Shown piece by piece: positions 1 to 37,892 of a stretch of DNA of 37,892 nt. The notes under the pieces are model-generated. The model was not told the DNA's origin. It searched no databases and was given only the letters and a program-made list of their open reading frames with translations. The stretch is from NCBI GenBank assembly GCA_003990765.1, contig RBNJ01000174.1:1-37892 (forward strand). Reading direction: 5' to 3'. The stretch is from Jimgerdemannia flammicorona. Lineage: Eukaryota. The position numbers were made by a program, and so were the translations under genes. Position 1 is the stretch's first letter, and every line of letters starts with the position of its first letter.

Positions 1-1985
1 TTTTTTTGGCTTTTTCACTTTATATCGGCACTCTCCAAAAGGTGTGGACACGATAGTAAAGTGGCTGGGATAATGGATATCTCAATTTCTGATTAAATGT
101 ATTACTCAGCAACTAGACCACTTTGTGTTCGAACATATTGCGCATCATTGCCTCGCACAAAGTGTCGTCCACTACCGCATTTACACCTCATATAAAAAAT
201 CCCAGACATAAAAAAGCTACCCTGGTGTGGTATACGGTATGCCGCTTGTTGGGGTGGGTAAATAAATAAATAAATCCTCTGATTGAGTAATGCGGCGAAT
301 AGGGTGCGAAAGCGATCCATTCGTTCCAAAAATATATCGATGTTGTAGACGCTCATTATCGTTCCGCGTGTAATTGCCACAACCGTGCAAGGTTTTTGAA
401 TCGTGGTCATCACGATAGTAACCTCCCTTGGGTGGTTGTGTTGAACTTCAAATTGCACATCGGAAACTGAATGCCACAAGCGCTACCACTTTTACGTGAG
501 ATAAATCTATTCGGATCACGTGTCAGCGTTACCAAACGAAAGCAATATATTGCCGCGCACGTTGACCTCTTATCTAGTTTTTTGCTCTTTTTTTGCATTG
601 CCAATTCATAACTTACACATTTTGTTTAAGTTTTTTCCACCATCCCTTACCAACTGCACATTTGATGGGATTGTCTCCGCTTCGAGGATTGACCCTCGTG
701 CTTTCGCAAGTGCAAAATCAACCAATTCACCTGTTATGGAAAAAGTGGAGACATTTTACTTGTGTAGACAAGAAAAGGGGTGTTCAAATATTGAGACCGA
801 AATGGTTAATGTCACACTCAATCTTGGAAAATATTTCTATATTCATTTGACTGACTTGAGAGCAAGTCATCGAAGGTATCAGTTTTACTCAAGAATTTAT
901 TATTTTTTATTTTACCTATAGGTTCAATATGAGAAAATAAAGTAGAAATTATTTGTCAAATATAATAAAGAAAATAGTGTAAAGACCATTTTATTGTAAT
1001 TTATCAATATCTGAGTCAATGATATTCTCTGAGATTGATGAAAATAATAAGAATAAGGATACTAAAGATTAAGATAATAAAAATATCATCAAAGTCAAAC
1101 TAAAGCAGATTTTATATATACTACTATAGCTAAAAGTCAGGTATGAACTAAATCAATTATACAACTTATGTCTATATCTGAGAAAGTATTAAAAAAGAAT
1201 ATTATGAAAAAGAGTTATAAATATAAAAAGATAGATTTGAAAATAAGACTTTATAGAGATAAAAAGATATTGAATTATATAAGAAAGAAATTCAAGTATA
1301 AGAAAAAAAAAATTAATAATATATAAATATTTTAGAATTAGAGGTATAATTTTTTAAATATAATTTATAATATAATAAGAAAAAAATTCTATAAAAAATA
1401 TAGATAAGTTTTTAATATAAAAGTTATATAATTGAAATATATACTCATTTAACTTTTATAAATATATATATAACCTATAGATTAAAGAAATTCTTTTTTT
1501 TTTATTTTTTATAATTTATAAATATGAAATACTAAAGCATTTTATCAAAATTCCACTCAATATATTTATGAACTAAACTTATATATTTGTTAAATTCTAT
1601 TTTTTTAGATGAGATATTTATATATATCTTTATATTGAAAAAGAATAAGCTAAATTACTATGTAAATTTATTAATATATATACTATTAGTGTTATAGTAT
1701 ATAGAATTAATTATTCATGAAATTCACTTATAAAATATATATTTATATATTATACTAATAGATAAAAAATAGATTAGTTAAATATAAAATAATTCTAATA
1801 GATATTGTAATAAACCTATATACTGATAGAATTAATATATTATAGATAATTAATAGTGACTATTGGTCCAAAGTTCTGAGTTTTTAAAGAAGTACTGAGT
1901 TCTAATTATCTATTATAGTAAAGTTTAGATAACACTTTCAGATTCTTATATAGTGTAATGGTGACCTCAGAATGATGACATCAGC

Positions 1986-2996
1986 ATGGAAGACAGCCTT
2001 TTCTTGCAAGCCACTAGATTGGAATACAAGAAGATCATATGGCATATGAGATGAGCAATAATGACCAACTGTGAGTCATTGTGACTACAGTACAAGCATC
2101 CTGAAGAATATAAAAGAAGGATCAAGAAACTGCAGTAGCAGTAACCAACAAGAACCACTAATCCCAAATTAGCTCAAAGACTTACTATAAATGAAATATC
2201 TGTTGTCTGCCAAACCTCAAGGTCAAGGAACTACCAAGGTATCTCAGTTGAAGAAAGGATGTTCCAAGACATCAGAAGAGCTATGAGGACCTGCTCAAGA
2301 AGGACTCCTAGTATCAACCTGGGTATTGCAGACCTCTATCACTTTATTCTCTACCACCATGAAATGGAAACAAGGATCACCATTGCTACTGAATGCCTCC
2401 AAATGTAGCAGGTATATGAAATAGGAAACCTCCTCTGCCAGAAGTTCCCATAGGTCAGCACTCAAGAGCTACAAGATACCACTCCCATGGATATACATGA
2501 AATAAGGACAGCTAAGAAGATCCATCAGATCTTCAGGTATGTACCATGGTTAATCCCCAACTTGGAGTATGTTAGAGTCTCAGATTTCAGAGACCTGTCA
2601 TCCTGCTATATCAATGCACTAGAAGCCAGGGTAGCTACAGAAGCCCAGTCCACTATCACCCTCAATAGTGATGAAGTAGAAGACTTCTGGCACCCTATCC
2701 TCCAGAACAACCCAGACCAATTTCTGCAAGAGTTGATCTCAGTATTCCAAGGCCCAAGCATCCAGGTTAGATCTCCCCAAGACCCCACATTTGTCCCCTA
2801 TTTTGTGGAAGAGAACCTCATAGACTGGAGAGCCCCAGACCTCCTCTCCACCACTGAATGTGATGATGTTATCCCACACAACATCAAAGTATATGAAATG
2901 TATGATCTATATGATGAATTTACAGATCTTATCTCCTTCAGTAATAATGATGATAATAATGATGAAGCCTTCATGGTTCTGAACTTTCTGCTCTAA
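1986..2996 (+). pseudogene. Accessory ORF inside the 5' LTR of element A (266-336 aa, unknown function)
   Basis: One reading frame from ATG 1986 (or 2196, which is ATG in the 3' copy) to TAA 2996. Stops at 2406 and 2451 are TGG and CAG in the other LTR. Confidence 0.8.
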
Positions 2997-3006
2997 GTTC
3001 TTTGTT

Positions 3007-3135
3007 ACACTGGATAATATCAGTACTGGTATTCTCATATAACACTGGATAATACCAGCACTGATATTCTGAGGTAATACGAAATTGTTCCAGTACCAGT
3101 ATTCTGATGTGATACTGAATTATATCAGTATCCTG
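3007..3135 (+). repeat. Degenerate 35-bp tandem array (about 3.7 units) in U3 of element A; also present in the 3' LTR (~10225-10353)
   Basis: Units start at 3007, 3042, 3077 and 3112, e.g. ACACTGGATAATATCAGTACTGGTATTCTCATATA and ACACTGGATAATACCAGCACTGATATTCTGAGGTA. Confidence 0.8.
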
Positions 3136-3235
3136 AACCTGTACAACCATTAGTACTGACCCTGGAACTTAGTAGTTTTAGTTATTAGAATTTATATTTA
3201 GCTTTATATCTTAGTAACTATTGAATTATATTTTG

Positions 3236-3268
3236 TATAAATACCCCTCTTATTTCCTCTGAAATAAA
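3236..3268 (+). promoter_or_regulatory. LTR TATA box (TATAAATA) and polyadenylation signal (AATAAA) of element A
   Basis: TATAAATA at 3236 and AATAAA at 3263; both retained in the 3' LTR. The same arrangement occurs on the minus strand in element B's LTR (10841-10848 and 10783-10788). Confidence 0.65.
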
Positions 3269-3474
3269 GTCAGTTCTGGTTTCACTTACACACAATCTGC
3301 AAGCAATCTAAGAGATAATAAGACAGTTTAAAGATAAGAAGTTTGAGGACTATAAGACCTTGGGAAGGTACTCCAATAAGAACTTGCTTATAACAAACTT
3401 GAGTTAGTCTAAGAGATATACCTTTAAGAGAATCTGGTATATTTGAAGAACTCAGCAACTACTACATGACAACT

Positions 3475-3489
3475 TGGTATCTATTGGCT
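3475..3489 (+). other. Primer binding site of element A (tRNA not assignable)
   Basis: TGG-initiated tract 3 nt after the end of the 5' LTR. Confidence 0.6.
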
Positions 3490-5435
3490 GGTGATTCAAG
3501 ATGAATCCCTCACTCTCAAGCTAAAAAACGAACAACTCCACAATAACTACCCTGACTACAAGAGTTACCCCTGCAAGAATTCAAGATAAGATGGAAATGT
3601 ATCCCCCCACATTCTATAGATATACTACTGAAGAGTCAATCCTGACCTTCATTGAAGACTTTGAACAATTTGCCACCATACAAGTCCTTGGTGTGGATGC
3701 TTAATTGGTCCTTCTACCAGTCAGTCTCAGAGGACCTGCCAGAGACAAGTTCAATGCAGCCACCATTGCTGATGCTAGTGCAGCCAAACTTGCCAACATA
3801 AAGGCCTTCCTCAGAACAACATATTATACCAAAGAGATCAAGCAAGCTCTCAAGGATCAACTCAATACTATCTGCCAGGGACTTAGTGAAAATCCCAACT
3901 CATTCTATACCTGAATCTGTCACCAGATTGTCTTGGCTGGCTATGATGACCACCTCAAGGAACAAATAGTGGATTCAACTTTCCTCAAAGGAGTTCACTC
4001 TGAAATTGCCCTAGCAATCCAGTCTACCCCAGCTGCACTGACCCTTAATCAGAAAGTAGTCTTTGTACAGAGATATTGGACTGCCAGACACCCTGCTGAA
4101 CACTCAATGGGGAAAATAACTGGCATTAAGATGGAGCCATCAAAGCCAACTAGTATCTTACCCACTACAGTTGTAAACAGACAACCAATCCCATCTACCC
4201 CCAAGACAGCCAAAGCTGACCCAGTGGAAGAACTTGCCAAGCAGTTTACTGAGATGACTACACACCTTAGTAATGTTGTTAGAGAAGTCCAAAGTGCCAA
4301 CAGGAGACCAGTGCAGAGATTTGTAGCTACTATAGAAGAATGCAATATTATATACTTCAGATGCAGAGAAGAAGGCCACTATGCAAAGAATTGCATAATC
4401 AAAACAAAATGCAAAGCCCAACCAAGCAATGCTAGCAGAACCAGAGAACAAACCAATGCAGTAGTCATTGAGGAGATTGGTGATACTGATGATGAAGAAT
4501 ACTATGAAGAGCTTGAATTCTACCCTGCTACTGAAGGTACCAGAACCCAGTCCAAGCCCTGTGACAAGAAGAGCAACAGTAAGCCAGTTGGAAGACCAAA
4601 GAAGACCTCAGCTATCACTATTCAAAGTAAGACCCAACCCAAGGAGATTGATCAAGACATAGAATTAGATAAAGCTGCCCACCAAATTATTAAAGGCACT
4701 ACTCTAGTCTCAGGAGAAAGTGAAAGCAAGAAGAAACAGAAGCTGTGCAAGACCAAGATCTATTAGTATTACATCTACAAGGACCTCAAGGAACAGAAGG
4801 TCAATGCTACTTTTGGACAACTATCCAAAGTCCCTGCCTTCAGACAGCAGTTGAGAGTAGGACTTGCAACTACTGCTAAGAATCAAGAGTACAAGATTAT
4901 AGAAGCTCACAATGCACAGAAAGAATCTGAGAACTTAGGTGAAGAATCTGAAGACCAGCACAAGATATCAGCCTATACTCTATATCAGATTGAAGACTAT
5001 ATCTTTGATGCCATCATTGATACCAGTGCTGGAGGATACCTCATGAGCAAGAAGGCAATTGACCACCTAGGCTGGGATATTGAAGAGTCTACCAAGATGG
5101 TCTATGTTATAGCAGATAGTACATAAGCTACCCCCCTTGGCAAAATCTGAGAAGTCTCCATCAAGATAGGAGGAGCTACTATCCCAGTAGACATGATTGT
5201 TACAAGTGCCACCAACTATAACATCCTCATTGGCAACCAATGGCTTCACAAGGCCAAGGCCATCATTGACCTCAATGCCCAGAAGATACAGATCAACTAT
5301 AGAGGAAGAAAGGTACAAGTTTCTATCAATGTCCACAAAGGAGTTCTATCAGATATGGAGGAAGGAGATGAAGAAGACACAGAGGTCTTCATACACTTGA
5401 TGAACAAGAACAAGAATAAGACACCCAAGCTCACA

Positions 5436-5684: not shown

Positions 5685-6093
5685 CTCAAGGTCAAGAAGT
5701 TTCACTCTGAAGCCAAGATCCCAGAATATAAAACTAAAGGAGCCATAGGAATGAACCTTGTCAGCATTCAAGATGCTACCCTCAAACCACAGACTACCAC
5801 CCTACTTAGCACTGGAATCAGAGTCAAGCTGCCAGAGAACTATGCTGGAATTATCAAGACCAGGAGCAGTCTGGCCAAAAGCGAAATCTCAGTTGAAGGA
5901 GGAGTAATTGACCCTGATTACACTGGTGAGATCTTCCTTTATAGTCAGAAATCACAACCACACCACCTCCTTTGAAGTCAAGAAGTATGATAGGATTGGC
6001 CAGATACTGATCTATGAAATCAAGAAGCCCAAGATCATTGAAGCCATTGAACTCATCAAGACCAAGAGAGGAGAACAAGGCTTTAGATCTACT
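5685..6093 (+). pseudogene. Trimeric dUTPase domain within pol of element A
   Basis: Motifs AIGMNL, RSSLA, GVIDPDYTGEI, DRIGQIL and RGEQGFRST; one frameshift near 5935. Confidence 0.95.
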
Positions 6094-9000
6094 AAAAGAG
6101 GAGCCTATACCACTACCAAGATTACTGAACTCAAGCACAAGAGAGACAAGGACCAAAACAAGCACACATATACCATTGGAGAAAACTTTCCCCTGGAGGA
6201 ACAACTTCTCAAGATCCTGTACCAGAATGAAGGAGTACTTGCTACAGACTTTAGGAATATCCATAATCAAGAACCCAAGTACTACCATGAAGTTGACACT
6301 GGCAATACTAAGCCCATCTACTAGAAAGCCAGACCCATACCACCTACCTACAGAGAGTGGCTGCAAGCAGAACTCAAGGAAATGGAAGAAGCCAGAATTA
6401 TCAAGCAAGCTATCAGCCCCTGGGTTTCATCCATTGTCCTTGTCCTGAAGAAAGGAAGCAAGCCTAGAGAGTTTGCACCAAGACTCTGCATTGACTACAG
6501 AAAGCTCAATACCATCACCAAGAAGGATAGACAGCCCTTGCCAAATATTCAAGAAATCCTTACCACCCTTGGAAGTGAAGCCAAATACTACACCACCTTA
6601 GATCTGTTCTCAGGCTTCTATCAGATTGGTCTCACTCAAGATGCCAGTGAGAAATCAGCCTTCATCACACCTGACACCACCTATATCTATCTGCAAATAC
6701 CATTTGGAATATACAATGCCCCAGTAAGTTTTCAGTGAATGATGAACAGAGTCTTCAGCAATGAGATTGGAAAATGGCTCTTTGTCTATGTTGATGATAT
6801 GATCATCTTCAGCAATACTGCACAGGAACATATCAATTACATACAGCTAGTCCTCAAGAAGCTCAAGGGGTATGGCCTCTACATCAAGCCCAAAAAATGC
6901 AAGTTTGCAGCTCAAGAAATTGCCTACCTAGGACACCTCATCAACCAGACTGGGATCCACACAGACCTCATAAAGATCGAGGCTGTAGCAGCCTACCCAA
7001 GACCCAGAACAACTACAGAAGTCCATGCCTTCCTTGGACTGGCCAGCTACTACTGAAGATTCATCAAAGGATACTCCAATATTGCAGCACCTATCTATGA
7101 GCTACTGAAGAAAGAGACCAAATTTGAATAGACCAAAAAGTGCCAAGAAACCTTCAATGAACTTAAGACCAGATTGACCCAAGCACCTATCCTCAGAAGA
7201 CCAGACTGGAACCTAGAATTCATCCTGCAGACAGACATGAGTGCTATAGGACTTGGAGCAGTCCTAGCTCAGAAGAAAGATGGATATGAATATGCTATCT
7301 TCTATGCAAGCTGAGGTACCTACAGAGCAGAACAAAACTAAGAGTCATGCAAGCTCAAATACTTAGCAGTAGTTTGGGTAGTAGACAAGTTCCACTACTA
7401 CCTAGCCAAGAAACACTTCACTATTCAAACAGACCACTCTGCTCTCACCTGGCTATTCCACACTCTGAACCCCAAAGGAATATATGCCAGATGGATCTAC
7501 AGGCTGTAAGAGTATGACTGTACTGTCAAGCACTGCTCAGAAAAGACCAAAACCAATACTGATGCACTCTCAAGGATACCTCGAAACACCCCCATCAAGA
7601 CTATTCAACATAAATAAGAAGCTATACTATGGATTAATCAACTATCTTGGATAGTGGAAGATGTCCAACCATCTTAAACCTTAGATAATCAATATTATCA
7701 ACTAGACTTGGAAATAGTTTGAACTAGACAACACTATACTCAGAAAAGGAGAAAAGCTAGTAATACCCAAATATAAGAAGTATCAAGTAATGAAGGAAGT
7801 ACATGAGCAAGGATACTTAGGAGGAACCAACACATACAATAAGGCATGAAGAACCATGTGGTGGCCTAAGATAGAAGAAGACCTGTGCCAATTTGTCAAA
7901 GGGTATAACAAGTGCCAAAAACAGAAACAAGATCAGCAAGACCAGGTACCCGGGTCATCAAGAATTGAGCCTATCCCATTCCACTACATTGCAATAGATA
8001 TCATTGGACCACTACCAGTAATACTATCAGGAAACTGCTATATTATAGTTATTGTAGACCTCTTCACCAAATGGATAGAGGCAGGAGCATTATAAGAAGC
8101 CAATGCCCTCTCTATAGCTAACTTCCTACACCAAGAAATCATCTGCCACTACAAGACACCAAAGCAAATCACAACAGACCACAGAACAGAATTTGTCAAT
8201 GGATTCCATGAGATAATGTATCAGAAATACAAGATCCAGCACATCAAAACCACTGTGTACCACTCTCAAGGAAATGAGAACTAACAAGATCCTCAAGAAC
8301 ATCCTAGCAAAGATCTCAGAGACATATGAGAATTGGGATAACTATCTCCCAACTGCCCTCTCTGTTCTATGAGACATATGGTCACAGAACACATACTTTA
8401 CCCCAAGAGAGCTGCTCTTTGGAGAAGAAGATTCTGATGGAACCTCAGCTATGAATCTAGACCTAACTTAGAGACAGATTGATGCAGAAATCTGGAGACT
8501 ACACCAAATCAAGAAGAAGGCTGAAGATTATATCACCAAGTCACAAGCACTGACAAGGAAGAATGTAGAAAAGAATAATAAGGCCCTAGAACTCATCTGA
8601 ACTAGAGAAAAAGTTCTACTGTATTGAAATATGGTAGAAGCCTCATGGTTATGAAAACTGGAGCCCAAATGGAAAGGACCCTTCTATGTACAAGATATCA
8701 AGGGAACCACCTTCTGGCTTAGAAAAATCTCAGAGACCATACTGCCTACTATAGTACATAGGAACAGACTCAAGAAGTACTACAAACCTATACAAGAGAA
8801 GAAAAATGTGATGACTGCCTGTGAGGTTCTAGTCCGTGAATCATAACAGCATGTCCTGTGACCAGCAGGCTATCTGTCTGGACCATTCTCTAAGGAATAT
8901 GGCACTGGTAACTACTCATCCATGAGACTTTCAAAGTCAGAGAAGATCAAACCATCAACTGATTGGTCAAGATCAGAATCAGGCCCTTGCTCTATATGAA

Positions 9001-9159
9001 GGGAGCAACCCTTCACCATTATACCAAAATACAAAGGGAAGACACCAGCCCATAAATATCACTTTTCAACCCCTTGTCAGAGGTTATGGGATCAACAAAT
9101 TTTTCAGAACTGGACCAATGAATAAGGATATTCGAGAAGATCCTTATTCAGGAGAAAGA

Positions 9160-10691
9160 TGTAACAGTGACTTCAGAATGATAATATCAGCATGGAAGAC
9201 AGCCTTTCCTTGCAAGCCACCAGATTGGAATACAAGAAGATCATATGGCATACGAGATGAGCAATGATGACCAACTGTGAGTCATTGTAACTATAGTATA
9301 AGCATCCTGAAGAATATAAAAGAAGGATCAAGGAACTGCAGTAGCAGCAACCAACAAGAACCACCAATCCCAAATTAGCTCAAAGACTTACCATAAATGA
9401 AATGCCTGCTGCCTGCCAAACCTCAAGGTCAAGGAATCACCAAGGTATCTCAGTCAAAGAAAGAATATTCCAAGACATCAGAAGAGCCATGAGAATCTGC
9501 TCAAGAAGGACTCCTAGTGTCAACCTGGGTACTGCAGACCTTTATCACTTTATCCTCTACTGCTATGAAATAGAAACAAGGATCATCATTGCTACCAAAT
9601 GCCTCCAAATGTGGTAGGAGTACAAAATAGGAAATCTCCTCGGCCAGAAGTTCCCACAGACCAGCACTCAAGAGCTACAAGATACCATTCTCATGGATAT
9701 ATATAAAACAAGGACAGCTAAGAAGATCCATCAGATCTTCAGGCATATACCATGGTTGATCTCCAACTTAGAGTATGTTAGAGTCTCAGATTTCAGAGAT
9801 CTGTTATCCCACTATATCAATGCACTAGAAGTCAGGGTGGCTACAGAAGCCCAGTCCACTATCACCCTCAATAGTGATGAAGTAGAAGACTTCTGATACC
9901 CTATCCTCCAGGACAACCCAGACCAATTCCTGCAAGAGTTGATCTCAGTATTCTAAGGCCCAAGTATCTGGGTTAGATCTCCCCAAGACCTCACATTTGT
10001 CCCCTATTTTGTAGAAGAGAATCTTATAGACTGGAGAGCCCCAGACCTCCTCCCTGCTGCTGAACGTAATGATGTCATCAGTGGTGACGTCATCCCACAT
10101 GACATCAAAGTATGCAAAATGTGTGACCTATATGATGAATTCATGGATCTCATCTCTTTCAGTAATAATGATGATGATGATGAAGCCCCTATGGTCCTGA
10201 ACTTTCTGCTCTAAGTTCTTTGTTACACTGGATAATGCCAGCATCAGTATTCTCATGTAATACTGGATAATGCCAGTATCAGTATTCTGAGGTGATACAA
10301 AATTGTTCCAGCACCAGTATTCTGATGTGATACTGAATTATATCAGCATCCTGAACCTGTACAACCATCAGTGCTGACCCTGAAACTTAGTAGTTTTAGT
10401 TATTGGAATTTATATTTAGCTTTATATCTTAGCAACTATTGAATTATATTTTGTATAAATATTCCTCTTATTTTCTCTGAAATAAAGTCAGTTCTGGTTT
10501 TCTTATACATAATCTCTTGCAAGCAATCTAAGAGATAACAAGACAGTTTAAAGATAAGAAGTTTGAGGACTATAAGACCTTGGGAAGGCACTCCAATAAG
10601 GACTTGCTTATAACAAACTTGAGTTAGTCTAAGAGATATATCTTGAAGAGAATCTGGCATATTTGAAGAACTTAGCGACCACTACATAACA
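9160..10691 (+). repeat. 3' LTR of element A (1532 bp)
   Basis: TGTAACAGTGAC...CTACATAACA; preceded by the PPT and followed by the TSD ATAG. Confidence 0.96.
9192..10214 (+). pseudogene. Accessory ORF inside the 3' LTR of element A (second copy)
   Basis: Same frame as the 5' copy. Stops at 9615, 9894 and 9954 are sense codons in the 5' LTR. Indels between copies within the ORF are +15 and -3 nt. Confidence 0.8.
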
Positions 10692-10975
10692 ATAGATAGA
10701 AATGAGCATACTTATATTCTAAGTTAATCAGACTCAGAATCATTAATAAGTTAGATCTGAGAGTTTATGATAAGAATACTACTTTATTCTTATATATGGA
10801 AAAAGTAGAGCTGATATTATAATATACTTAGTATAGAGAGTATTTATATTTTCAAAGGCTATAACTAAATATGGTATACTGAATACATATATTTATATAT
10901 AGTTATACTACTTTAGATAACTATAACTGCTAGTTAGAAATTATATAGAAATTTTAATAGGAATTTTTATCAGAA

Positions 10976-11420
10976 ATTCCAGAGCCTTGTAATGATTTAT
11001 TATATCTTTTATTTCTTTACTTAAGCCTACTCATTAGACTCAGTACTAAACTCTAGATATTTATCAAACTGGAGAGCAGTATACTAGACTACTTGAAAAA
11101 TAATTTTTCTTCATTATTCATTACTCAAATTGATAATATTCTCAAAGGATACTCTATAGAGATAGTTAAGAACTTATAGTCAGGTGCAGAAAAGAACATA
11201 GAGTCTCTTGACAACTATATAGGTATAGTTGTCAATGAAAAGACAGACTTATTGTTTGGTAGTACTAAGGGTAGCTTATTGATAGATGAGATATCCTATC
11301 TTATACTCCTTAAGTTCTTATTAGTAGCAAAAAGCTTAGAAATATTATATTCTTCCAAGATATTATTAAGCTTTATTTGAATTAGGGTCTTCAGAGATTT
11401 GAATGTTAACAGCTAGTGAG
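10976..11420 (-). pseudogene. Accessory ORF remnant 3' of pol in element B, homologous to the LTR ORF of element A
   Basis: ELKEYKIGYLIYQ*...IVVKRLYVLFCT*L*VLNYLYRVSFENIINLS aligns with EYEIGNLLCQK...TAKKIHQIFRHVPWLIPNLEYVRVSDFRDLS. The start is not resolved. Confidence 0.65.
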
Positions 11421-11669
11421 TCTATAGAATTTCATTGGTGTTTGATTGCTCTTAGAATGGTAGTAGTAATTTTGTTCTTGACTAGTTCTCAGTATCATTA
11501 TTAGATACTTATGTTGGGAAGATAGATGGTCTATACAGAATTGTTCAGAATATTTGTACTTCTCTTTATAGGGTTATTTAGAAATATGACTATCTTTTAG
11601 AAATTTTATCAGAATTTCTATTATATTAGATTTCTATATTAAGTTACTACTTCTTCTATATTGGACAAA

Positions 11670-14493
11670 AGATTATCTTCTTTTTTTCAGTTAATATTAT
11701 ATTCAGAGTATTCTTTCTATTTCACAAGGTAGTATTAAGTAGGCTTGATAGCTTATCCAAAATGGTAATCCTTATAATTCAGAATATAGTCAACTTTATA
11801 TTTTAGTTTCTAATTAATAATTATTTGATCTAAAGATAGAATAGTTCTTTTTTTAAAGATGTTTGGAGTATATAGCTAAAGTTAGAATATGTGAAACATT
11901 GGATGGATTTTCCCTAGTATTGCCAGAAGGTCCAACTTATATGCAACAGGTCTGTATTTTTCAAAGATCTCAAAAGTCTAATATAGCAGAGTCTAAGCTC
12001 CTTTTTAAAGTCTATATTACTCAGAGTCAGTCACTGAGTATTGAGTAATACTTGTTCTCCTATTTTGTAGATAACTTCTCTTCTATTTTTATCAATATAT
12101 ATCATTTATATTCTTTGTACTTCTATGAGAATATCTTGTACTTGCTAGATATTATCTTGTATAGTATTGATAATTTCTTGTGTTATAGGTACTATAGTTT
12201 GAGTTGATATTATAGAAGTTTATAGATATTTTCTATAATTCAAGTAAAATAGTATCATCTTAGTACTTATACTTGGGCTATTATTGTATGTAAATTTGAT
12301 TAGAGTTAGTTTTTTATCTTAATTATTTTGCTTAGATACTAAGTATCTGCTTCAGGATTTCATTTATTCTTTCTATCTAACCATTTGTTTATAAATGGTA
12401 TATTGTAGATATTTTCAATTACACTCCTAAGCTCTTGAAGAGTGTTTGTCAAAAATTACTTATAAACTTTATATTTTAGTCTGAGATAATTGCTGAGAGT
12501 AGTCTATAAAGACAGAACACATTATCAATAAATAGTTATACTTTTTTTGATACTATTGCAATAGTGGTTATTTATAATAAAGTAAGTCTGTTTGCTGAGA
12601 TGATTGATGAAAATGACAATCACATTCTTTCTCTTTTTAGTTTTTGGTAACTAGACAATAAAGTATATTCTGATGTAGTCTCAATTCTAGATAGAGATTG
12701 GTAGTAGTTATAAAGTACTAGCTAGTATCTGGTTGCTAGACTTATATCTTTAGCAAACATTACAAGATGCAATAGAGTTCTTGATATCAGATATCATTTT
12801 GGACTAGTAGAAGTCTCAAGCAAAATGTTAATATACATATCTTTCCAAAACTCATATATCTGACTATAGATATATCATATAGTTCTTATAGAATTTATAA
12901 ATGAATAGAGATATCTGAGACCCAGATTCTTATATTATCAAGATATATATATATATATTCATTTTGGACAAATATATTCTTATAGACCTTTTTCATAATA
13001 TTGCTACTTTCTTCAAGGATTTATCTGGTGATTTTTTTATACATTGGTGTCTTTGGTGTACTCTTTCTTAATTTCTTCAAATAGGCTAGTGATAATATTA
13101 CTAATTACAGTAAGGTCATCTTTCTGAGCACTTCAGGAGAGTATATCAGCTACTTTATTCTGAGTTTTAGCAATGTACTTTATTTCAATATTAAATGATA
13201 TAAGAATCTGAATCTATTGGATCTGTCTTTTTGTAAGGATTGACTATGTCTAAATATATTAGCAAGTTTGATAGTCAGTCTATAAGGTGAATATTTTATA
13301 AAGAAGAAAATTTCTCTATAGCTATAGAGATCAGATGACTGCAAAGAGTTCTTTGTCTTATATAGTATAGTTTCTTTTATATTTATTGAGTTTCTGAGAT
13401 AGATAGGCAACAGAGTGTTTATATTGAGTCAGAATAGCTTCAATCACAATTTTTGAGGTATTGATAGTAACTACAAAAGGTCCTGTTAAGTTAGGACTGA
13501 TCAAGATTAGTATACATATCAGTCAGAATTCTTTTAAGGGTATTTAATACTATAGTGTATTTTTCTGTCTATTCTTTTTCAATATTAGTATCTTTTTTGA
13601 TAAGACTTATGAGTGGAGCTGTAATTGCAGAGAATTCTTAAATAAATCTCCTATAATATTCTACTAGTCTATTGAATTTTTATAGAGACTTAAGGTTCTT
13701 TGGAATAGGTCAATTGCAGATTACTTGGGTCTTAGGATTAATGACAATACCATTTTCAGAAATAATATAGCTTAGATATTTAATTTCCTTCTTAAAGAAA
13801 TAGTATTTCTTTCTTTTTTCTAAGAGCTTATATTTACTGAGTATATCAAAGACCATTTATAGATATTGTTGATAAATGATATTACTTGTACTATATATTA
13901 GGATATTATCTAAGTAGACTAGAATAAATACTCTAAGATATTTTTGGAAGATATCATTTATTAATATTTAGAAGATTACTAGTGTATTAGTGAGACTGAA
14001 GAGTATTATGTAGAATTCATAATATCCAAATCTTGTTTGAAAAACTATCTTGGAGATATCTTCTTCTTTGATACAAATTTAGTAATATCCAGATATGAGA
14101 TCAATGAGTAAAAAGGTCTTGGCCTTATATACTTAGTTAAGTAGTTTATCAATTTTTAAGAATATATATTAGTTCTTAATTGAAATCTTATTGAGTGCTC
14201 AATAATCAATATATATATAGAGGCTTCCATCCTTCTTATAGATAAAGAGAATTATTGTATCATATAGTGATTTTAATAGATAGATGAGATCTTTACTTAT
14301 CAATTCTGTTAGTTATTCCTTGAGGGTTTCTAGCTCAGATTGGGCTAATTAATAGATTCTGCAATAGAGTAGATTTGAACTGAAAATATCTTCAATATAA
14401 TGTTTTACTGCTTGAACTAATGGTAGTTTTTGAGGTTCTTTAAAAACATCTTCATATTTCTTAAGAAGTTCTCAGAGATTATCTTTCTCATCA

Positions 14494-14495
<2 letters not shown>
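11670..14495 (-). pseudogene. pol of element B: RT, RNase H, integrase, chromodomain
   Basis: LLKKYEDVFKEP, KKDGSL..IDY*ALNK, DLISGYY*I, FQTRFGYYEF, VYLDNILIYS; RH FVVTINTSKIVIEAILTQ; IN tail PVAYKLDL...KIHPMFHI; chromodomain KYKVDYIL...YYLVK*KEY at ~11700-11810. Confidence 0.9.
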
Positions 14496-14538
<43 letters not shown>

Positions 14539-14578
14539 GTCACTTGGACTCTGCCATTTATTACCTGTCTATTAAAAT

Positions 14579-17500
14579 TTTACAGTTTACCCTCACACTA
14601 CTCAATCCCCATAGGAGTACCACTCCTCCGACTTACATAGACAAAGACCATCTTTGCACCCACCACCCCAACCCTCCCCCCACTCTGTCTACAGATTTGT
14701 TCTACCAAATGATGCCTTCAACCCCCCTTCAACCTTCAACCCAGCCACCAGCCCATCAAGGTGTCTTCCATAAGGCTATGTCACCTCATCAGCCTGACCT
14801 CAGAGCCAAGTTTTCTCCTATTCTCAAAAACAAATAGCCAGTGACTGGCCAGCCCTACCCAAATGGCCAAAGCCCACCCTAATATCAGCCATTCTTTCCC
14901 CACCCCCCCCTCCAGTCTATCCCTTAAATCCTCCCAATACTCCCACCCATTAACTCTCCTACACACTACTCTCAGATGATCTCCAATATTCTGCCAAAAG
15001 GTACTAAGTACCTCACACTCTCCTAGCCAATGTTCAGGCATCTGTACATATCCTCCTTCCTGCCCTACATTATAACACTCTTCACAGTCAAAACAGCCTC
15101 CCTTGATAAGGTAACTAGAGCGGAAGTTGAGCATGACATTTCACCTCAGTATACACCACCAGATCACCCAGTACTTTGGTGGCAGCCACCTCCTCACCTT
15201 GGCACTCCAGGCCCATATACTATACCAGTCCCACTCCTCGCCAATTCCTACACCCTGCCAACTGCTAGACCACAGATCCTGGCCTGGTCCCCATTGGCAT
15301 TTGATCCCATCACCAATGTCAAACTCAAGTAAGGGAATGCCACCTAGTAACACTCGATCCCATTGTCACATTGCTGGGTCCCAAGCCTCCTCCCCTTCAT
15401 TTCCCTGTCACCTAATCTCAATGCAGCATGCCTCTTCTACCACTCCCCACCAGAAGCCTTTATACCATAATTGTCCAGAGTTCTGAAGGCCCATAAGCGC
15501 TAGGAGGTCACTCATCGAACCTCTTGGAGAGGACCTCATCTCCCAGACTTTCTGCAGTAGGGGAACCCAACCACCCCCTCTCAACTCCACTGCTCTCTTC
15601 AGCCACCAAGCTCTCAAGCAGTATAGTCTCTTAGGAAAGTCGACCAGCCCAAGTCCCCAACTTGCCACTAGTAAGGACAAGACCTCTCAGTTGATCTGAC
15701 TCCACCTTCTAGCCAATCTATCCCTTGGCCAGCTTCATCAATCACTTCACCACCCAAGCCAGGAAGTCTAGATAATAAGATACTATATCTTTGGCAGCCA
15801 ATAGATATTCAGAATTAAAATGCATCCTGCCAGAGACAATTGATGGCCCCCCCAGCTCCACAGGGCCTCCTCCCAAATGCCAACCCACTGCTCCCACCAA
15901 AGTCTGGGCAGAACCAACCCATATACTGACAGATAGATATCCAAGTACTATACTGCCTCACCAGCAGAGACAATAGTACCAATAATCTCCCCACCCACTA
16001 GACCATTGCCTAACACCATTGTTTTGCACTTATGCTAATTAAGCCTAGCCCCAGAGTTTGCCTCATACCACTCCACTGTCTCCTTGAGCTCCTCAACATC
16101 CGCAACTGATCCCCAACTGACCACTATGTCATCTGCAAATGCCCCTACTTTTCACCTGATGCCAAAGATAGAGAGCCCCACTATCTTCCACCTGATTCTG
16201 TCCATGAAGGGCTCCAGAGACAAAGCATACAAAATGGGGGACAGTGGGTTCTCCTGGAGCACCCCCCTACCCAGGGGAAATACTACCCCTCTATGTTCAT
16301 TACACATGAGTGCCACCCTACTCCCTTCCAGTAGGCTGACCATAGTAGTCCTGAACTGTTGTGGGACCCTGATCCTATCCAAAACTTTTGCCAACCAAAC
16401 CCATTGTACTCGGTCATAGGCCTTCTCTTGGTCCAAAAAGACCAGATACCCATCCAGTCCACTGGCTCGTGCCCCTTCAATAATGCCATGTACCCATGCT
16501 ATACCATCTCTTATGAGCCAGTCTCTAATGAAGCCCCACTGCTCCTCACCCAAGACTTGCTGGACCACCTTTTGCAACCTTACGACTACCACTTTGGTAA
16601 CCAACTTTCTGTCCATATCCAGTAGCATAATCGGCCTCCAGTTCTTCTAGTCCTCTCGGCTTCCTTTGTTCTTATAAAGCAATATCACTAACCCTAGGTC
16701 CTGTTCTTCCACCCATCTCCCTATCTGTAGAATCCAATCACACAGTGCCATCATCTCTCCCACTATTCCAGGAACTCCCACCATCCTTTTCCAGAAGTCC
16801 CAGGGCAGACCATCCTCTCTAGGTGCTGTACCCAAGGTTGTCGCAGCAAGAATCTGGTGGATCTCCTCCTCTAGCACTAGCAGTACTAAGTCATCCAACC
16901 CAGCTGCTCAGGTAGGGTACCAATCCTCCAAAGCTCGATCAATGTCCTCAGCACCTGCCCCACCCTCCTCCTTACTCCACAATCCACTCCAATGCTCCTT
17001 TAATGATCCAAGAATATCTTGTACCCCATGCACCAATGAACCATCAGCATTAAGCACCCCTTCCTACCTTTGCTACACTCTTCTCGCCTAAAGGGCCCTT
17101 GTAAGAAACTTCAAGGGCTGCTCTCCTTCCTCCAGCCCCTGCCAATGAAGCCATGCTGCCAGACCCTGGACTCTTGCCTCTTCCTCATTCTGCAGCACCT
17201 GTTGTAGTTCAGCTACCTCCATTTGTAACCTTATTGATTGCCAGTCCTCCTCTCCCTCCAATATCACCAGTCTTGCCTAGTTCTCCAAGAGTCTAGATAA
17301 TCTACATAATGCCCACTATACCCACCACCTCCTCTGCCTCCCTGCCTCCATACCAGCCTCACTCCAGAAGGCCCTGGCCATCTCCTTCATCCTCATCCAC
17401 TGAATATCAACTGCGACCCCTCCCTGCCTCCAATACTCCACCTGTATTTGAATGACTTTGGCCTATTTACCCCACTGGATCTTATCTTCTAGTAGGGAGG

Positions 17501-18248
17501 AATTGAGATGCCAATGTCCAGGCCCATCCCCACTCCCCCCAAAATGTCTCTGCCCCAAAAGCCCCCAATAATCTGACCAAGGACACCATTCTACCTCCAG
17601 CGACTTCCAAACATCCAGGCCCCAGCAGCTAGCTGTCAGAATCCAATCAATCCTTATCCCCAGGCCCCCAGCCCAGTGTGTGTACACCCTCCTATTCCCC
17701 CAACATTCTCTACCCACATCTACCAGAGCACTAAGTCTTTCCACTTCCTCCCATGCTGCCAGTCCTCTACTCCACTCCACAGCACCTCGTCCCCCATCAG
17801 TTCTATCCCTCAATATATCTCAGACCATATTGAAGTCCCCACTGAGTACATCTACTCCAGCCTCTACAAAAATCCCACTCTCCTGTAGGCCTGTCACCCA
17901 ATTCACCTGCTCGCCCCATACTGCAGGGCAGTAACAGGAGTCCACCATGACAGGCTCTCAACCTGCATATAACCACTCTCTCCAGAACAATCTATTTCCT
18001 CAGCTCTGCATATCCCGTATCTCTCCTCTGCCCTTCCACACCAGAATTCCAACCTTGCCCTTCCAAACTGCCTCACCTCTCCACTCCTTCATCCATTCCA
18101 GTCTATCCAAGTCATCCTTACACCTGACATCCTGCAAGAGAAAGAGATCAGCCTCCAATCCCTTCAGCTAAGTAAAAATGTTCTTACATTGATAAGCACC
18201 CCATAACCCATTCACATTCAAAGAAAAAATGTTGGTTGTACTATTCAT
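14579..18248 (-). pseudogene. LINE-a ORF2: APE endonuclease, reverse transcriptase, C-terminal Cys/His knuckle
   Basis: MNSTTNIFSLNVNGL, LFLLQDV, RIDWIL, WSDY, LDQEKAYDRV, GVLQENPLSP, AFADD, CEEC...EHWLGEC. The 3' end is approximate. Confidence 0.93.
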
Positions 18249-18259
18249 GAGAGAAATTA

Positions 18260-20225
18260 TATAGTTTCAGATGCGTCCTCTACTGCTCCATGTCCACTTT
18301 CTCCTGTGCCCTATCCAGGTTGCACTCAGCAATAGCTTCTGCTTCCTTGGTCCTCTTAGCCTCCAATTTAGTCAGGATTTCCACCATCTCCCCATCCTCC
18401 TTTTCCTCAAACTCCTCATGGTACTCCAAACAAGCCTCCTGTCAGAGCTACAGTCCATGCCTCTTAGTCTAATAGTGGACAGCCTGCTCACCCACCACAA
18501 CCACCAGAGCAGCTTCCCTCTCCTTATCTACCTCATACCCCTCCTCTTCCAAGTATATCACCAGAATTTCTGCCTTCAATGCTACCACCACTCTATCTCC
18601 TTGCAGGATCCTTGCCCAATGCTCATTGCTCATCACTTGGAGGTTGACTTCCCCCAGCTCTTCTGCTGCTAAGTTGTTCATTATTTGGCATACCCAGAGT
18701 AAGTTTCCTACCTCCTTCCCTCCTGGGGTCACTGGCCTCCCTCCATCCAACATCATAGTATCAGCCCCTATACTCACTGACTCATTCCATCCCTCCTCCA
18801 GGACATCCACCAATTCTCCTTTCCCAGTCGCCTTTACCAATTCTCCCTTCTCTACATTTGGGACTCCAAAGCACACCTGCTGAGTACCACACATCAGTAC
18901 ATCCTCCATCACTCTACCTTTCGCCACTGGACCCCTTCTGATAAGGGGAGAGGGTGAAGGTGAATCCTCCCAGGTTTCCTCCCAAACCTCCAGTGTGCCA
19001 TCTTCATATGGATTCTTGCTTGGCACCTTCATGGCCTCTACCTGCCCCCCCTCCTCGTTCCACTCACTACTAGCAGCCCAGACACTCACCTCAGCACCTC
19101 CAGCAGTTGCACTATCACTTGCCTTCCTTGTCACCTCTACCCCCATTTTCACCAACAATTCCCTCTGTCTTCTGCACTCTTGGGACCTCTCCCACACCTC
19201 CTTGTTGATGCAGACTCACTTTCCTCCAACCACCTCAAGATGCATTGCTGCCTCGAATGCCTTCCATACTTTTGCCCTCCTCTAACTGCCCCACTCAACT
19301 CCTCTAGCACTTCCAGCAAATCCTTCTCCTCCTCCTCACTCCCCTTTACTCTTGTCACCTTATACAAGATAGCCCTCCACACCATCACTGAGGGCCAGTT
19401 CTGAGCCTTCCCAGTAGCCTCCTGCCCAGCCAGCTGAATCCTGATGTCAACATCCCCTGTCTAGAGAGAGATTCCCTCCCACACTCTGAACCCAATATTG
19501 ACCACCTCTCCATACTCCACTATAATCTCCTCAACTCTCTTCCTTGTTGCTATAGCAGTAACAGTGGGAACTCCTTTCACCAGAAGCTACACTACTCTCA
19601 GGTCCCACTGCAGGCATCTCACCATCAGTATGCACACCTTGCCCACTTTCATCCCAGCCTTCAAAGCCTCCTCCAGTGGCCCAGCCTCCTCTAATCTCAC
19701 CTCCACCCCTTTGAGGCCCTTCAGGAACTTAACAGATGCTGCCTCACTCATTTGCTTCACAATCAGCCCCAGAACCATTTTTGCCATCACCGCTAAGCCC
19801 CGGAAACACATTGTGATTGCAAATTCCAAGATTGACTTCTTGAGTAATGGAGCTACTGCCAGTTCTGTTATACCATCCGCTAGGTCCCCGGGCCTCATAC
19901 CCTTCCCACTGCTCGGCTCACCATCAGCAGTCCCATCTAGATTTTTTTCCAGATCACCCATCACACCCCTATCAGCAGTCCCTGCCTCAGCCACTACCCC
20001 CCCAGCTCCACCCCTATGGCCCTCCAGAGGGGTACCCCTATGAGGTTGCTGCCTGGTAGTCCTTACTGGCACCTTCTCCCCCCTCAGCCAGCTCTCCAGT
20101 CCAGCTCCCTGTTGACCCCCCTTCACCTTCTCCACAAAGCTCACTCTGCCAGACCCTTGACCTCCAGCTCTGCCCCCTCCTCCACCACATCCTCCCACCA
20201 GCAGGTCCCTCATACTACCCCCCAA
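18260..20225 (-). pseudogene. LINE-a ORF1
   Basis: Long minus-strand frames (19587-20225 and 18469-19197) whose sequence recurs in LINE-b and LINE-c (SFxxKVK, DLAD...LLKKS). Confidence 0.8.
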
Positions 20226-20396
20226 GCCAGGGCCTCTCCCTATTTACTGCCATTCAAATGCTCCAGGGCCACTCTGCCCAGTATGCACCCCAGGATACTC
20301 ATTGGTTGCCATGATACTAGTAGCTTGTCTCCAGAAACTATATCGAAAGTATTGCCAAAAGATTGTGTAACCTGAATGTTACCAGAGAAAGATGCA

Positions 20397-22390
20397 CTTT
20401 CTCATCATCTTTATTCTTCAGAAGTTCAGAGAGTTCTTTATTATCTTCTTCTGGGGTCTTCTTAACTATATATATATAGATGTGCTGATCTGATTTCTGA
20501 ATCAGTTTTTTCATCTGAATAGCAGAGATAATGTCACATCTGGACTTCAGTTTCTTCTTATTATACTCAAGTTGTAACTTGATATCTCCTAGAGAGAACA
20601 TATTGATTTATCAATCAATGTGGGGGTTTTCCTATTTGAGCCAGAATTTTCTAGAGATGAGATTATATCTAGAGAGATGTATAATGTAGAAAGTTTGTCT
20701 TGTGGTGTAGTTTTTGAGTTATTGAAGTACATTCTTATATATCTTAGAGAGTTTCTGTATTGTTCTATTTCCAAAAGTGATAATGTTTTCTTCTGGATTC
20801 TTTTGCATCTTGACATAGAATTTATCAGTAGTTTCTTGGTCTAGATAGTATTTACTTGCTCTACTCTTAATAAGGACTTCAACAGGGTTTCCTTCAATCT
20901 TTCCTTGAAGGCAGATATATTTAGTATTAGTTTCTTACTAGGTGACAATTGTTTCTGAGATAGTTTCTTCTTTCCAATCTTGTACTTCTCTATCTTCATT
21001 ATTGATATTCTTGATTTCTTTATTTTATCATTCTGGAATTATTAGCTTATACTTCTTGAATTCAAGAATACATTTGATGCATTCTTCTATATACTTGAAA
21101 TAGTATATATATCTTGAATCTATATAGATATCATCCTATAGAGATATATCTATTAGTAATGCACTGATATTATTTCTGATCTCAGTCTTGAGATTCTTCA
21201 ATATAGACAATCTTCTATACCTTAGTTTTCTCTTTGGCTTTATTAGAGTACTTCTTCATTGATCCAAAGGCTTTTTCTTCTCTATTAAAAGGTAATAGTT
21301 ATTTTGTTTCTTCTACTTAGAGATCATTATATATTACTTTTATGATAGCTTGGTTGATTCATTTTCTATATGTGATTTTGATGGCCTTTTATTCAGTATT
21401 ATATAGTAGGATCTTAATTTTATCTTTGAATCCTTAGTCTACAACTCCTTTAGTTATACAGAGTCTTTCTTCTTTAGCCAAACTACTCCTTTCTATAGAT
21501 AGATATAGATTTCTTTGAAAACTTCCATTCTAAGACCTATACTAATGATTGCTTACTTGTCTGATTTAATAGTCAATTCTATACTAGAGTAAAGGTCATA
21601 GCTAGCATCTAATTTATATATCTTATCTGAGATTTTTATAGTAATATGAAATCTCTTAACCTTGATTTTCTTGGTAGTTTCTTTTTGGTTATCTCCTATC
21701 ATAGTGATAGTGTGTGAGAAGGATGGTCTTTTAATAGTATTAGTCTTCTTGTCAGAATATTCATAAGATATATATTTTTTAATTTGTAGTAAAAACATGC
21801 TCTCTTCTTCATAAGTTCTTTTATTTCCTTATTAGACAGTTTCTTAAATTTTCTTTATAGTCTTGAGAACTTATTCCAGAATTTATACTTCTTTTCAAAT
21901 TGGTATCATTTATCTCCTTTGTTGTTATTTATATTATCTCTTGGTCTTTGAACTATAATAATAATATATACTTGGATAATAGCTTATTCTGAGCACTATT
22001 GCTTATGTGAACAATAATAGAGTTATTTTTGTTTATAGATTTTTCTGATAGCTATCTAGGGATAGTATCAAAGAAATAGGTAGCTTAGGGTCCATTTACA
22101 GTCTGCTCTCACTAGCTATATTCTACTCTAATAGTATTCAGAAGTGTTTCTAATCTTATAGCAAATGCTTTAAGATCTTCTTTTCTGTTATTGTAAAATT
22201 GTAGATTCTTGAGTTTAGTTCTTCAGCAATATGAGTAGAGCTTCAGAACTTCTGGATAATTAGCTCTTTTAGATCTATAGTAGTTAGATAAGCTTTATGA
22301 TCAGGATGATTATCTTCTTCATTACTTATAACAACTTCAGTATAGAATTTACAAGTAAGAGAGTATACTGATAGATTGTACTACTACTGA
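20397..22390 (-). pseudogene. gag, dUTPase, Cys/His module and protease of element B
   Basis: Decayed zinc knuckle KKLSNKEIKELMKKRACFYYK (~21790-21850); protease GKIEGNPVEVLIKSRAS and NLISRKFWLK*ENP (~20620-20910). Confidence 0.85.
21257..21669 (-). pseudogene. dUTPase domain of element B (between gag and protease)
   Basis: KIKVKRFH, DASYDLYS, IERSSLAK, GVVD*GFKDKIKILLYN, INQAII and REEKAFGSM: all five dUTPase motifs in order. Confidence 0.9.
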
Positions 22391-26866: not shown

Positions 26867-27593
26867 CATTAATACTGAGTATATATATATATATATATAT
26901 AATAACTAATTAGAATTTAAGTATATATATTATATATATATATTATATTAGTAAAATTATAAGATCTTATCAATTAGTTAGTTAAATATATATTAATATA
27001 TCAAATTAGATATAATATATACTAAAGTAATATATATAATATGTTAGCTTTAGTAATTTATTAATATATAGTTTATAGTAATAATTACTAATATAATTTA
27101 TAATATATAATTAATATATATATTTTGTTAAATCTTAAATCTTATTAAAAAAAAAAAAAAAACTATATCTATTTTAATATTAAGTATATTTAGATTAAGT
27201 TTTGTAGTTGAAATAATAAATACTTTAGTTTAAACATATTTATTATTATAGTCAATTACTATTTATATTTGTAAGATAATAATAGTAATATGGCTATATA
27301 TAGATTATCTAAAGTATATTTTTATAATTTATAATAAATTTTCTAAACTAAGTAAATTGTATAAATTTTATAAATTATATAATAAACTTTATAAATATTC
27401 AATAATGGTATTCAAACTCTTAGAAGAAAAATTTACAAGAAAATCTATATAGTGCAATTACAATCTTATAAAGATTTTAATTTAGAACTATTAAAGTAAA
27501 TTTTAAAAAGAAATCTTTATAGTACAAACTCTTTATGATAAAATCTCACAAACTTGAATTTTTTTTATAGAATATTCAACCTCGAGAAAGAGA

Positions 27594-27734
27594 ATTGAGA
27601 ATAAGATACTTTTTTAGAAGCTATTCAATTTTGGGCAAGAGGATTGCAGCTATTCAATCTTGGACAAGAGTAATGAGAATGAGGCACTTTTTTAGAAGCT
27701 TATTCAAGGGGCAAGGGGATTGAGAATGAGGCAC
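27594..27734. repeat. Short degenerate tandem repeat
   Basis: Repeated blocks TGAGAATRAGRYAC, TTTTTTAGAAGCT(T)ATTCAA and GGRCAAGRG. Confidence 0.6.
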
Positions 27735-27973
27735 CAATAGTTTGTACGAGTTACTAACTGTGTCGCCGACTATACCAGAAATGTTCGCCAACATTCCACA
27801 TAAGTTACCCGTGCCAAAATCACTAGCACCGAAATAGCGGGTTGACGAGATTTACCCCCTATTTATTATAAATTTGAGGCACTGGCATTGTGCAGACGAA
27901 TCAAATGCTCGTATTTGTGGATAAGTCATGTGTTTTCGACTTTTCGATCCAGGGGCACCGTATGGTCCAAATC

Positions 27974-31795: not shown

Positions 31796-31797
<2 letters not shown>

Positions 31798-31834
<37 letters not shown>

Positions 31835-36332: not shown

Positions 36333-36373
<41 letters not shown>

Positions 36374-37861: not shown

Positions 37862-37892
<31 letters not shown>

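Follow-up and report, generated by a model that had tools for sequence, protein, structure and literature searches.

The stretch of DNA considered here, called the window throughout, comprises positions 1 to 37,892 (37,892 nt) of contig RBNJ01000174.1 from the Jimgerdemannia flammicorona assembly GCA_003990765.1. It contains a degraded, dead Ty3/gypsy (Metaviridae) retrotransposon, which we refer to as element A, with the order gag, protease (PR), dUTPase, reverse transcriptase (RT), RNase H (RH), and integrase (IN). The assignment to Ty3/gypsy is based on the TG...CA long terminal repeats (LTRs), a target-site duplication, and a primer-binding site (PBS) as well as a polypurine tract (PPT) that adjoin the LTRs, together with Pfam matches that place the pol domains in the order PR-RT-RH-IN; no chromodomain was seen in the element. 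Each LTR contains an open reading frame (ORF) in its U3 (unique 3′) region, and this ORF is the subject of our analysis. Comparison of the two LTR copies with each other and with related proteins makes it probable that the ORF is a genuine gene of the retroelement, kept by selection and situated in U3. The LTRs, their borders, and the ORF copies are positioned as follows:

1950..1953 and 10692..10695: target-site duplication ATAG, 4 nt, read from the sequence
1954..3471, plus strand: 5′ LTR, 1518 nt, TG...CA, from the LTR alignment, direct repeat families D1, D2, D4, and D6, and blastn, with its end read from the sequence
3475..3490, plus strand: PBS region adjoining the 5′ LTR, assigned from position alone
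9150..9159, plus strand: PPT directly before the 3′ LTR, read from the sequence
9160..10691, plus strand: 3′ LTR, 1532 nt, TG...CA, from the LTR alignment, blastn, and the sequence of the ends
1986..2195, plus strand: proposed 'MEDSL...' extension of the ORF, not part of the protein, with three stops common to both LTRs
2196..2996, plus strand: U3 accessory ORF, 5′ LTR copy, 266 codons plus stop, with internal stops at 2406 and 2451 and ATA at the start codon position
9402..10214, plus strand: U3 accessory ORF, 3′ LTR copy, ATG at 9402, 270 codons plus stop, with internal stops at 9615, 9894, and 9954

By way of correction, the 5′ LTR ends at 3471, after which comes the PBS, and the 3′ LTR at 10691, after which comes the ATAG duplication. 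Alignment of the two LTRs confirms the statement in an earlier note on this DNA that the consensus frame from 2196 to 2996 is open: every stop within the ORF is private to one LTR, and faces in the other LTR a sense codon that is a single transition apart. The scarcity of stops is specific to this frame. Over the span of the ORF, the ORF frame of the 5′ LTR contains 2 stops and the other five frames contain 10, 27, 11, 8, and 26; for the 3′ LTR the numbers are 3 in the ORF frame and 11, 24, 11, 10, and 31 in the other five. Only two insertions or deletions (indels), of 15 nt and 3 nt, distinguish the two copies within the ORF. The known genes of element A, with which the ORF was compared, are located in the internal region:

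3591..4766, plus strand: gag, start codon ATG 3591, stop codons in frame at 3702, 3912, and 4764, with relatives P0019-P0026
5154..8284, plus strand: pol, broken, from Pfam domain matches
about 5154-5297, plus strand: protease in pol, Pfam RVP_2
about 5709-5945, plus strand: dUTPase in pol, between PR and RT, Pfam dUTPase
6448-6936, plus strand: RT in pol, Pfam RVT_1
7132-7314, plus strand: RNase H in pol, Pfam RT_RNaseH_2
7850-8284, plus strand: integrase in pol, Pfam Integrase_H2C2 and rve, below the Pfam cut-off (E 7e-4 to 7e-3)

The gag-to-dUTPase frame has stops at 7 of 786 codons, RT-RH at 5 of 453, and IN at 2 of 145, with frameshifts in addition. Expressed per 100 codons, these correspond to densities of 0.89, 1.10, and 1.38, respectively, and the densities for the ORF are 0.75 (5′ LTR) and 1.11 (3′ LTR). 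The similarity of these values indicates that the ORF frame decayed at the pace of the known genes; it was as open as gag-pol when element A inserted. The ratio of nonsynonymous to synonymous differences (pN/pS) between the LTRs is 0.88 in the ORF frame and 0.93 and 1.19 in the off-frames, i.e. neutral. Note that both LTRs decay after insertion, so that a neutral ratio is expected and the comparison is silent on selection at earlier times.

Relatives of the ORF protein were found in metagenomes. We identified 13 related proteins, 21–80% identical, the matches to the two most distant being weak. Of 158 candidates from a word-seeded search of 5.8 billion proteins, 5 were relatives, with E values of 1e-36 to 1e-121 and 63–80% identity, and a profile search of 1.84 billion representatives gave 6 matches at E <= 0.001, including the distant P0013, P0014, and P0015; P0016 was a marginal profile match (E 8e-4). 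Cluster look-ups contributed P0010, P0011, P0027, and P0028. All of the relatives are JGI/IMG or ENA records from contigs of 720–4848 nt, named at most 'hypothetical protein'. Two are uninterrupted over their full length, these being P0006, with 271 amino acids (aa) and 67% identity, and P0014, a protein of 342 aa on a 4848-nt contig that is 40% identical to P0006. P0005/P0010 (247 aa, 80% identical) is uninterrupted from an internal Met. Indels among the relatives preserve the frame.

The relatives also bear on the extent of the product, for which the earlier note had given 266–336 aa. P0006, P0013, and P0014, the three relatives of full length, share the start 'MP', at a Met equivalent to the ATG at 9402. 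The longer form requires the extension to 1986, in which the LTRs share stops at codons 23, 33, and 51 and each copy has one additional private stop, and 'MEDSL...' is present in no relative. The proposal of a protein encoded inside both LTRs is thus upheld by a frame that was open at insertion and by intact homologues elsewhere, and its shorter length stands; the 336-aa extension does not. These data support a real product of 266–270 aa rather than 336 aa, with the qualification that the placement of the start relies on gene callers, which are blind past stops and to a spliced upstream exon.

Pattern scans for further loci of the ORF family gave 397 matches in metagenome contigs, with patterns that do not fit P0014 and may therefore have passed over its contig, 160 matches in viral contigs plus 1 in a further scan, and 28 in genome contigs, and no locus was confirmed in any of these. 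Similarly, tblastn with 12 family proteins found no homologue in 67 gypsy loci that had been located by their RT (806,246 bases), loci whose RT is at most 40% identical, bar two short partial matches at 42–44%.

As a proxy for selection we simulated drift, applying substitutions without constraint to the 264 sense codons of the ORF in the window and ignoring indels. The probability that the frame is still free of stops, and the mean number of stops, were determined at the levels of divergence seen among the relatives:

80% amino acid identity: probability of no stop 6–9%, mean stops 2.3–2.7
67% amino acid identity: probability of no stop 0.8–1.5%, mean stops 3.8–4.5
40–46% amino acid identity: no stop-free frame in 500 runs (0/500), mean stops 6.1–7.8

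The window copies, which are approximately 80% identical to P0005, have the 2–3 stops expected from drift. The intact relatives have none, and their lack of the stops predicted by drift argues for constraint. A full-length, alignable relative at 40% identity is, by this simulation, inexplicable by drift. Two short motifs recur toward the C-terminus. The motif [D/E/N]-L-I-x-F is found in the tail of 12 of the 16 family sequences, occurring twice in P0014, and one of the four sequences that lack it, P0013, stops short of the tail. A second motif, x-L-N-[FI]-[LT], lies near or at the C-terminus in 11 of the 16.

In the window the gene belongs to the element by its presence in both LTRs. For the relatives, indirect evidence that the gene travels with the retrotransposon family came from a search with gag for shorter proteins. 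This search returned 5 relatives, one of which, P0021, is a gag N-terminus with 60 of 69 residues (87%) identical to element A; no near-full-length gag relatives were found. P0021 and the ORF relative P0010 are each on a JGI/IMG contig of 2375 nt, and the distance in the window from the ORF start to the P0021-like stretch of gag, 1656 nt, fits a contig of this size. P0010 appears to share its contig with the family gag P0021. An additional link is provided by P0009, whose aberrant C-terminus matches the LTR minus strand at 10165–10331 (E 8.6e-5), a segment that includes the end of the ORF and non-coding LTR past it. The P0009 contig therefore carries LTR sequence in rearranged form, pointing to either an inverted duplication or an artefact of assembly. 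The two sets of relatives also fall into parallel tiers of identity, approximately 80% and 63–68% for the ORF, and 81–87% and 58–62% for gag.

With regard to gag itself, P0021 ends at the codon of the window gag stop at 3912–3914, through which P0024 and P0019 read. This end could reflect either a contig end or an independent mutation of the same hypermutable codon.

Live members of the family are predicted to produce a soluble protein about 270 aa long, with no known domain and no membrane span. Searches of Pfam, NCBIfam, and PHROGs gave no usable family match, nor any Pfam match at E <= 1 other than a weak one to ATG5_HBR, seen in 4 of 14 members with a best E of 0.028, below any threshold. 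No usable relative was found among PDB sequences or in the ESM Atlas. An AlphaFold model from a 14-row alignment had a mean predicted local distance difference test score (pLDDT) of 54.5, with helices over residues 18–150 (blocks at 60–88) and a low-confidence tail; the C-terminal 180 residues modelled alone gave a mean pLDDT of 49.4. The N-terminal two thirds are thus modelled as helical at low confidence, followed by a tail that is acidic and indel-rich. Fold searches with the first, poor model (pLDDT 54.5) were negative, the best scores being Z 4.6 on a single helix with VIA, E 0.3 with BFVD, and E 1.3 with Foldseek against the PDB. An origin from gag was considered and rejected, the gag and ORF proteins having an hhalign probability of 0.1%.

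The highest mean hydropathy over 19 residues is 0.59–0.74 among the proteins, indicating no membrane span, and every member has an acidic C-terminal half in which hydrophobic residues are interspersed. Both results match the earlier note, which had described an acidic tail and no long transmembrane segment (the maximum being 0.74). The basic N-terminal half that it also described holds for the close subfamily, the first 60 residues of P0006 having a net charge of +8, and fails for P0013 and P0014 (0 to +2), so that a basic N-terminus is limited to that subfamily.

The ORF is placed wholly in U3, upstream of the LTR TATA box and poly(A) signal, as the earlier note had it for the TATA box (TATAAATA at 3236, with the ORF ending at 2996). 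The following sites in the LTR are relevant to how it may be expressed:

2109..2116, plus strand, with 3′ copy at 9315-9322: TATAAAAG box, ~87 nt upstream of the ORF start, kept in both LTRs, from a pattern scan and the LTR alignment
3007..3111, plus strand: a 35-nt unit with a palindromic core, repeated three times in tandem after the ORF stop and before the LTR TATA box, from repeat families D1, I1, and I4
3236, plus strand, with 3′ LTR copy at 10454: LTR TATA box (TATAAATA), from a pattern scan
3263 (feature 3236..3268), plus strand, with 3′ LTR copy at 10481: sole AATAAA of the LTR, from a pattern scan

A gene wholly inside U3 would be carried in two copies by each integrated element. We propose that it originated as an extra ORF between pol and the 3′ LTR, which would have been drawn into U3 when the PPT moved upstream of it. 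In genomic RNA the ORF would sit in the 3′ U3 and act as a 3′-terminal gene. The TATAAAAG box is a candidate promoter of the ORF itself, and the 35-nt repeats are candidate regulatory sites of an enhancer-like type. By one possible route, transcription would begin at the TATAAAAG box (2109/9315) and end at the poly(A) signal of the LTR (3263/10481), yielding a monocistronic mRNA of ~1.15 kb that either LTR, and even a solo LTR, could produce. By another, the ORF would be translated from a spliced subgenomic RNA, like retroviral 3′ genes; inspection by eye only gave no convincing donor/acceptor pair for such an mRNA. The function is a guess, the protein perhaps being a trans-acting regulator or adaptor for the element whose tail motifs engage host machinery.

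A bolder proposal, which we put forward tentatively and at well under even chances, is that the LTR might be a self-contained gene cassette, with its own TATA box, a 270-codon ORF, and the LTR poly(A) signal, such that every LTR, solo LTRs included, could make a trans-acting protein of a new family. If this were true, the whole element family would have in the protein a public good, or else a modulator of copy number or defence, and it would represent a mode of encoding accessory functions that is undescribed for retrotransposons outside retroviruses.

Both LTR copies of the ORF, gag, and pol have all been broken by the same transition-type hypermutation. The LTRs differ at 156 of 1534 aligned positions, a count that extends to 3491, 20 nt beyond the LTR end; 146 of the differences are transitions and 10 are transversions. 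The ratio of observed to expected CpG is 0.02–0.03 in element A, compared to 0.12 in 15000–20000 and 1.07 in the P450 gene described below. The base following C/T-variable LTR sites is A in 63 cases, C in 31, T in 6, and G in 4, with 28 more sites in TG-versus-CA pairs. The pattern suggests that repeats are targeted in the host by deamination, either methylation-linked or resembling repeat-induced point mutation, in CpG, CpA, and CpC contexts. The effect on the ORF is evident at Arg codons. Arg is retained in the window copies as AGR codons, except for one CGT in the 3′ copy, and at positions that are Arg in the relatives and not in the window, the window codons specify Cys, His, Tyr, Gln, or Trp. 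The string 'HDIKVCKMC', to which the earlier note drew attention, is present in the 3′ copy, and both of its Cys residues (alignment columns 276 and 279) are Arg in the relatives, with codons as expected from CpG decay of CGN. It is therefore a product of decay and not a metal-binding motif.

Several more specific or competing explanations were weighed. One is that the protein is an adaptor or antagonist, whose short linear motifs in the tail recruit or block host factors for silencing, degradation, or trafficking and thereby protect the element RNA or DNA. Among retroviruses, accessory proteins encoded at the 3′ end, for example Nef and Bet, act in this manner. The two motifs are conserved in a tail that is otherwise variable and indel-rich and that is modelled with low confidence, and the host attacks the element with cytosine-to-thymine hypermutation, so a counter-measure would pay. 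However, readings of the motifs as clathrin-box-like or as SUMO- or Atg8-interaction-like are consensus patterns rather than tests, and the ATG5_HBR match falls short of any threshold at its best E of 0.028. We regard this function as possible, if on balance unlikely.

A second possibility, which gives specific form to the nuclear regulator inferred in the earlier note, is that the protein activates transcription from its own LTR, the basic N-terminus serving for nuclear targeting, the acidic tail for activation, and the 35-nt palindromic repeats as binding sites. Foamy-virus Tas, a 3′-encoded activator with a C-terminal acidic activation domain, offers a precedent. The charge of the N-terminus in P0006, the acidic C-terminal half with its interspersed hydrophobic residues in all members, and the position of the three repeats between the ORF and TATA box are what such an activator would show. 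It remains doubtful, given that no DNA-binding domain or fold was found in the family, PDB, and fold searches (with a fold model that is poor), that the distant P0013 and P0014 lack the basic N-terminus, and that the repeats could equally bind host factors.

A third explanation is that a host gene or fragment was captured (transduced) into the LTR and is a passenger with no role, the metagenome relatives being host orthologues. The protein resembles no retroelement gene, having no Pfam match and, as noted, a negligible hhalign probability against gag, and capture is documented for LTR retrotransposons (PMC7264820). Against it, the ORF is not confined to this copy. The earlier note had named as decisive a captured host fragment present in this copy only, and we instead found 13 relatives in two to three identity tiers, paralleled by those of the gag relatives. 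None of the 22 family records, gag relatives included, is from NCBI/UniRef or has a name beyond 'hypothetical protein'; they are JGI/IMG or ENA records from contigs of 629–6479 nt. One ORF relative is apparently linked to the family gag, and the P0009 tail has non-coding LTR sequence. Passive capture is thus improbable, but an ancient capture followed by retention is compatible with a selectively maintained U3 gene. As for an open frame that arose by chance or is a relic, and that never coded for protein, the lack of a domain or fold speaks for it, but it is refuted, and left with next to no credibility, by stop counts far under those of the other five frames, by homologues reaching E 1e-121 with full-length forms at 40% identity, and by a simulation in which 0/500 frames were open at that level of divergence.

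A potential concern with the interpretation of the ORF as a maintained U3 gene is raised by several observations, which weigh against it. The lack of homologues in the 67 distant gypsy loci means that the gene is confined to a narrow lineage. Protein databases list open frames only, which weakens the argument from drift at 67–80% identity, although not at 40%. The drift simulation is the sole proxy for selection, in place of a DNA-level ratio of nonsynonymous to synonymous substitution rates (dN/dS) among family copies. Conservation is even along the protein: when P0006, P0005, and P0014 are compared in bins of 20 columns, the counts of identical columns show no departure from uniformity (chi-square p = 0.71). 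Both structure models are poor, and the statements on helix and disorder are correspondingly weak. The sharing of a contig by P0010 and P0021 rests on equal size and source, the contig itself being unseen. The ORF start is preceded, 5 nt upstream, by an ATG in another frame, so that leaky scanning would be needed, and the expression routes are drawn from sequence, not RNA.

The remainder of the window contains one apparent host gene, a cytochrome P450 gene at 28740–30643 on the plus strand. It is in four frame-shifted pieces, the last two of which match Pfam p450 (E 5.5e-30 and 3.2e-20), and the pieces fit short introns, with for example a GTACGT donor-like site at ~30201. Three related blocks on the minus strand, at ~14400–20400, 22900–26500, and 32000–37892, have 40–52% guanine plus cytosine (GC), GC skew of -0.35 to -0.58, and in common the repeat families D3 and D5, which are 70–75% identical. 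One of them includes an RT ORF at 16152–16646 on the minus strand (RVT_1, E 8.6e-17), and all three are probably decayed non-LTR retrotransposons resembling long interspersed elements. The transposons and the P450 gene, at 40–50% GC, are far above the very AT-rich spacers between them, which have 17–28% GC and are found at 1001–2000, 11000–14000, 21000–22000, 27000–28000, and 31000–32000. The spacers could represent the native composition of intergenic DNA, or hypermutated repeats of great age.

A gene carried in the LTR is doubled in every insertion and survives in solo LTRs, which alters how its dosage scales with copy number and how it could act for or against the family. An orphan protein with relatives only in metagenomes may also represent a new kind of interaction between retroelement and host, the host here being one that hypermutates its transposons. 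More generally, long LTRs may conceal genes that are lost from annotation by repeat-masking.

The closest positional counterpart of the U3 ORF is sag of mouse mammary tumour virus (MMTV), a superantigen gene in the LTR U3 whose product in that vertebrate retrovirus, Sag, is a type II membrane glycoprotein and is represented by a Pfam family. Like sag, the ORF of element A is a whole accessory ORF in U3, upstream of the LTR promoter, present in both LTRs and, in the genomic RNA, at the 3′ end. In contrast to Sag, its protein has no hydrophobic span, and element A is an env-less Ty3/gypsy element. The protein does not belong with Sag on the basis of the Pfam searches, which gave no match, and its peak 19-residue hydropathy of 0.59–0.74. 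The MMTV sag gene is named in PMC4667437. A functional analogy can be drawn to other retroviruses as well. Lentiviral nef and foamy-virus tas/bet are 3′-terminal genes overlapping U3 that encode regulators or adaptors, expressed from subgenomic or internally promoted mRNAs. The ORF is likewise 3′-terminal and reaches U3, but it lies wholly inside U3, whereas nef and tas/bet only overlap it. Similarity to Nef or Tas-Bet was not detected as a Pfam or PDB sequence match or as a BFVD match at E <= 0.001, the last with a poor fold model (pLDDT 54.5).

Additional ORFs (aORFs, ORF3) occur in LTR retrotransposons outside the LTRs. In plants they occupy the internal region, where they either precede gag or separate pol from the 3′ LTR (PMC7264820), the ORF3 genes of bdelloid rotifers follow pol (PMC5408684), and some fungal gypsy elements have an 'add. 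ORF' (PMC2864245). The ORF of element A resembles these in being a family-wide extra gene beside gag-pol, in sense orientation and downstream of pol. It differs in that the PPT of element A is upstream of the ORF, making the gene part of the LTR. Its protein also has no hydrophobic span, unlike the products of env-like sense aORFs, which are marked by a signal peptide or transmembrane segments. The body of element A has a fungal counterpart in PosPlaTy3-5 of Postia placenta, a Ty3/gypsy element with a dUTPase between PR and RT (PMC2864245). Element A has the same gag-PR-dUTPase-RT-RH-IN order as dUTPase-bearing fungal Ty3/gypsy elements.

The review of additional ORFs (PMC7264820) has 0 occurrences of the phrases 'in', 'inside', or 'within the LTR'. 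Phrase searches of the open-access literature, which are no proof of absence, found no LTR retrotransposon outside the retroviruses with a gene inside its LTR. To our knowledge, only retroviruses have until now been credited with a complete, conserved gene inside U3. We therefore rate the U3 ORF of element A as a retroelement accessory gene in a new place, one that would encode a new protein family.

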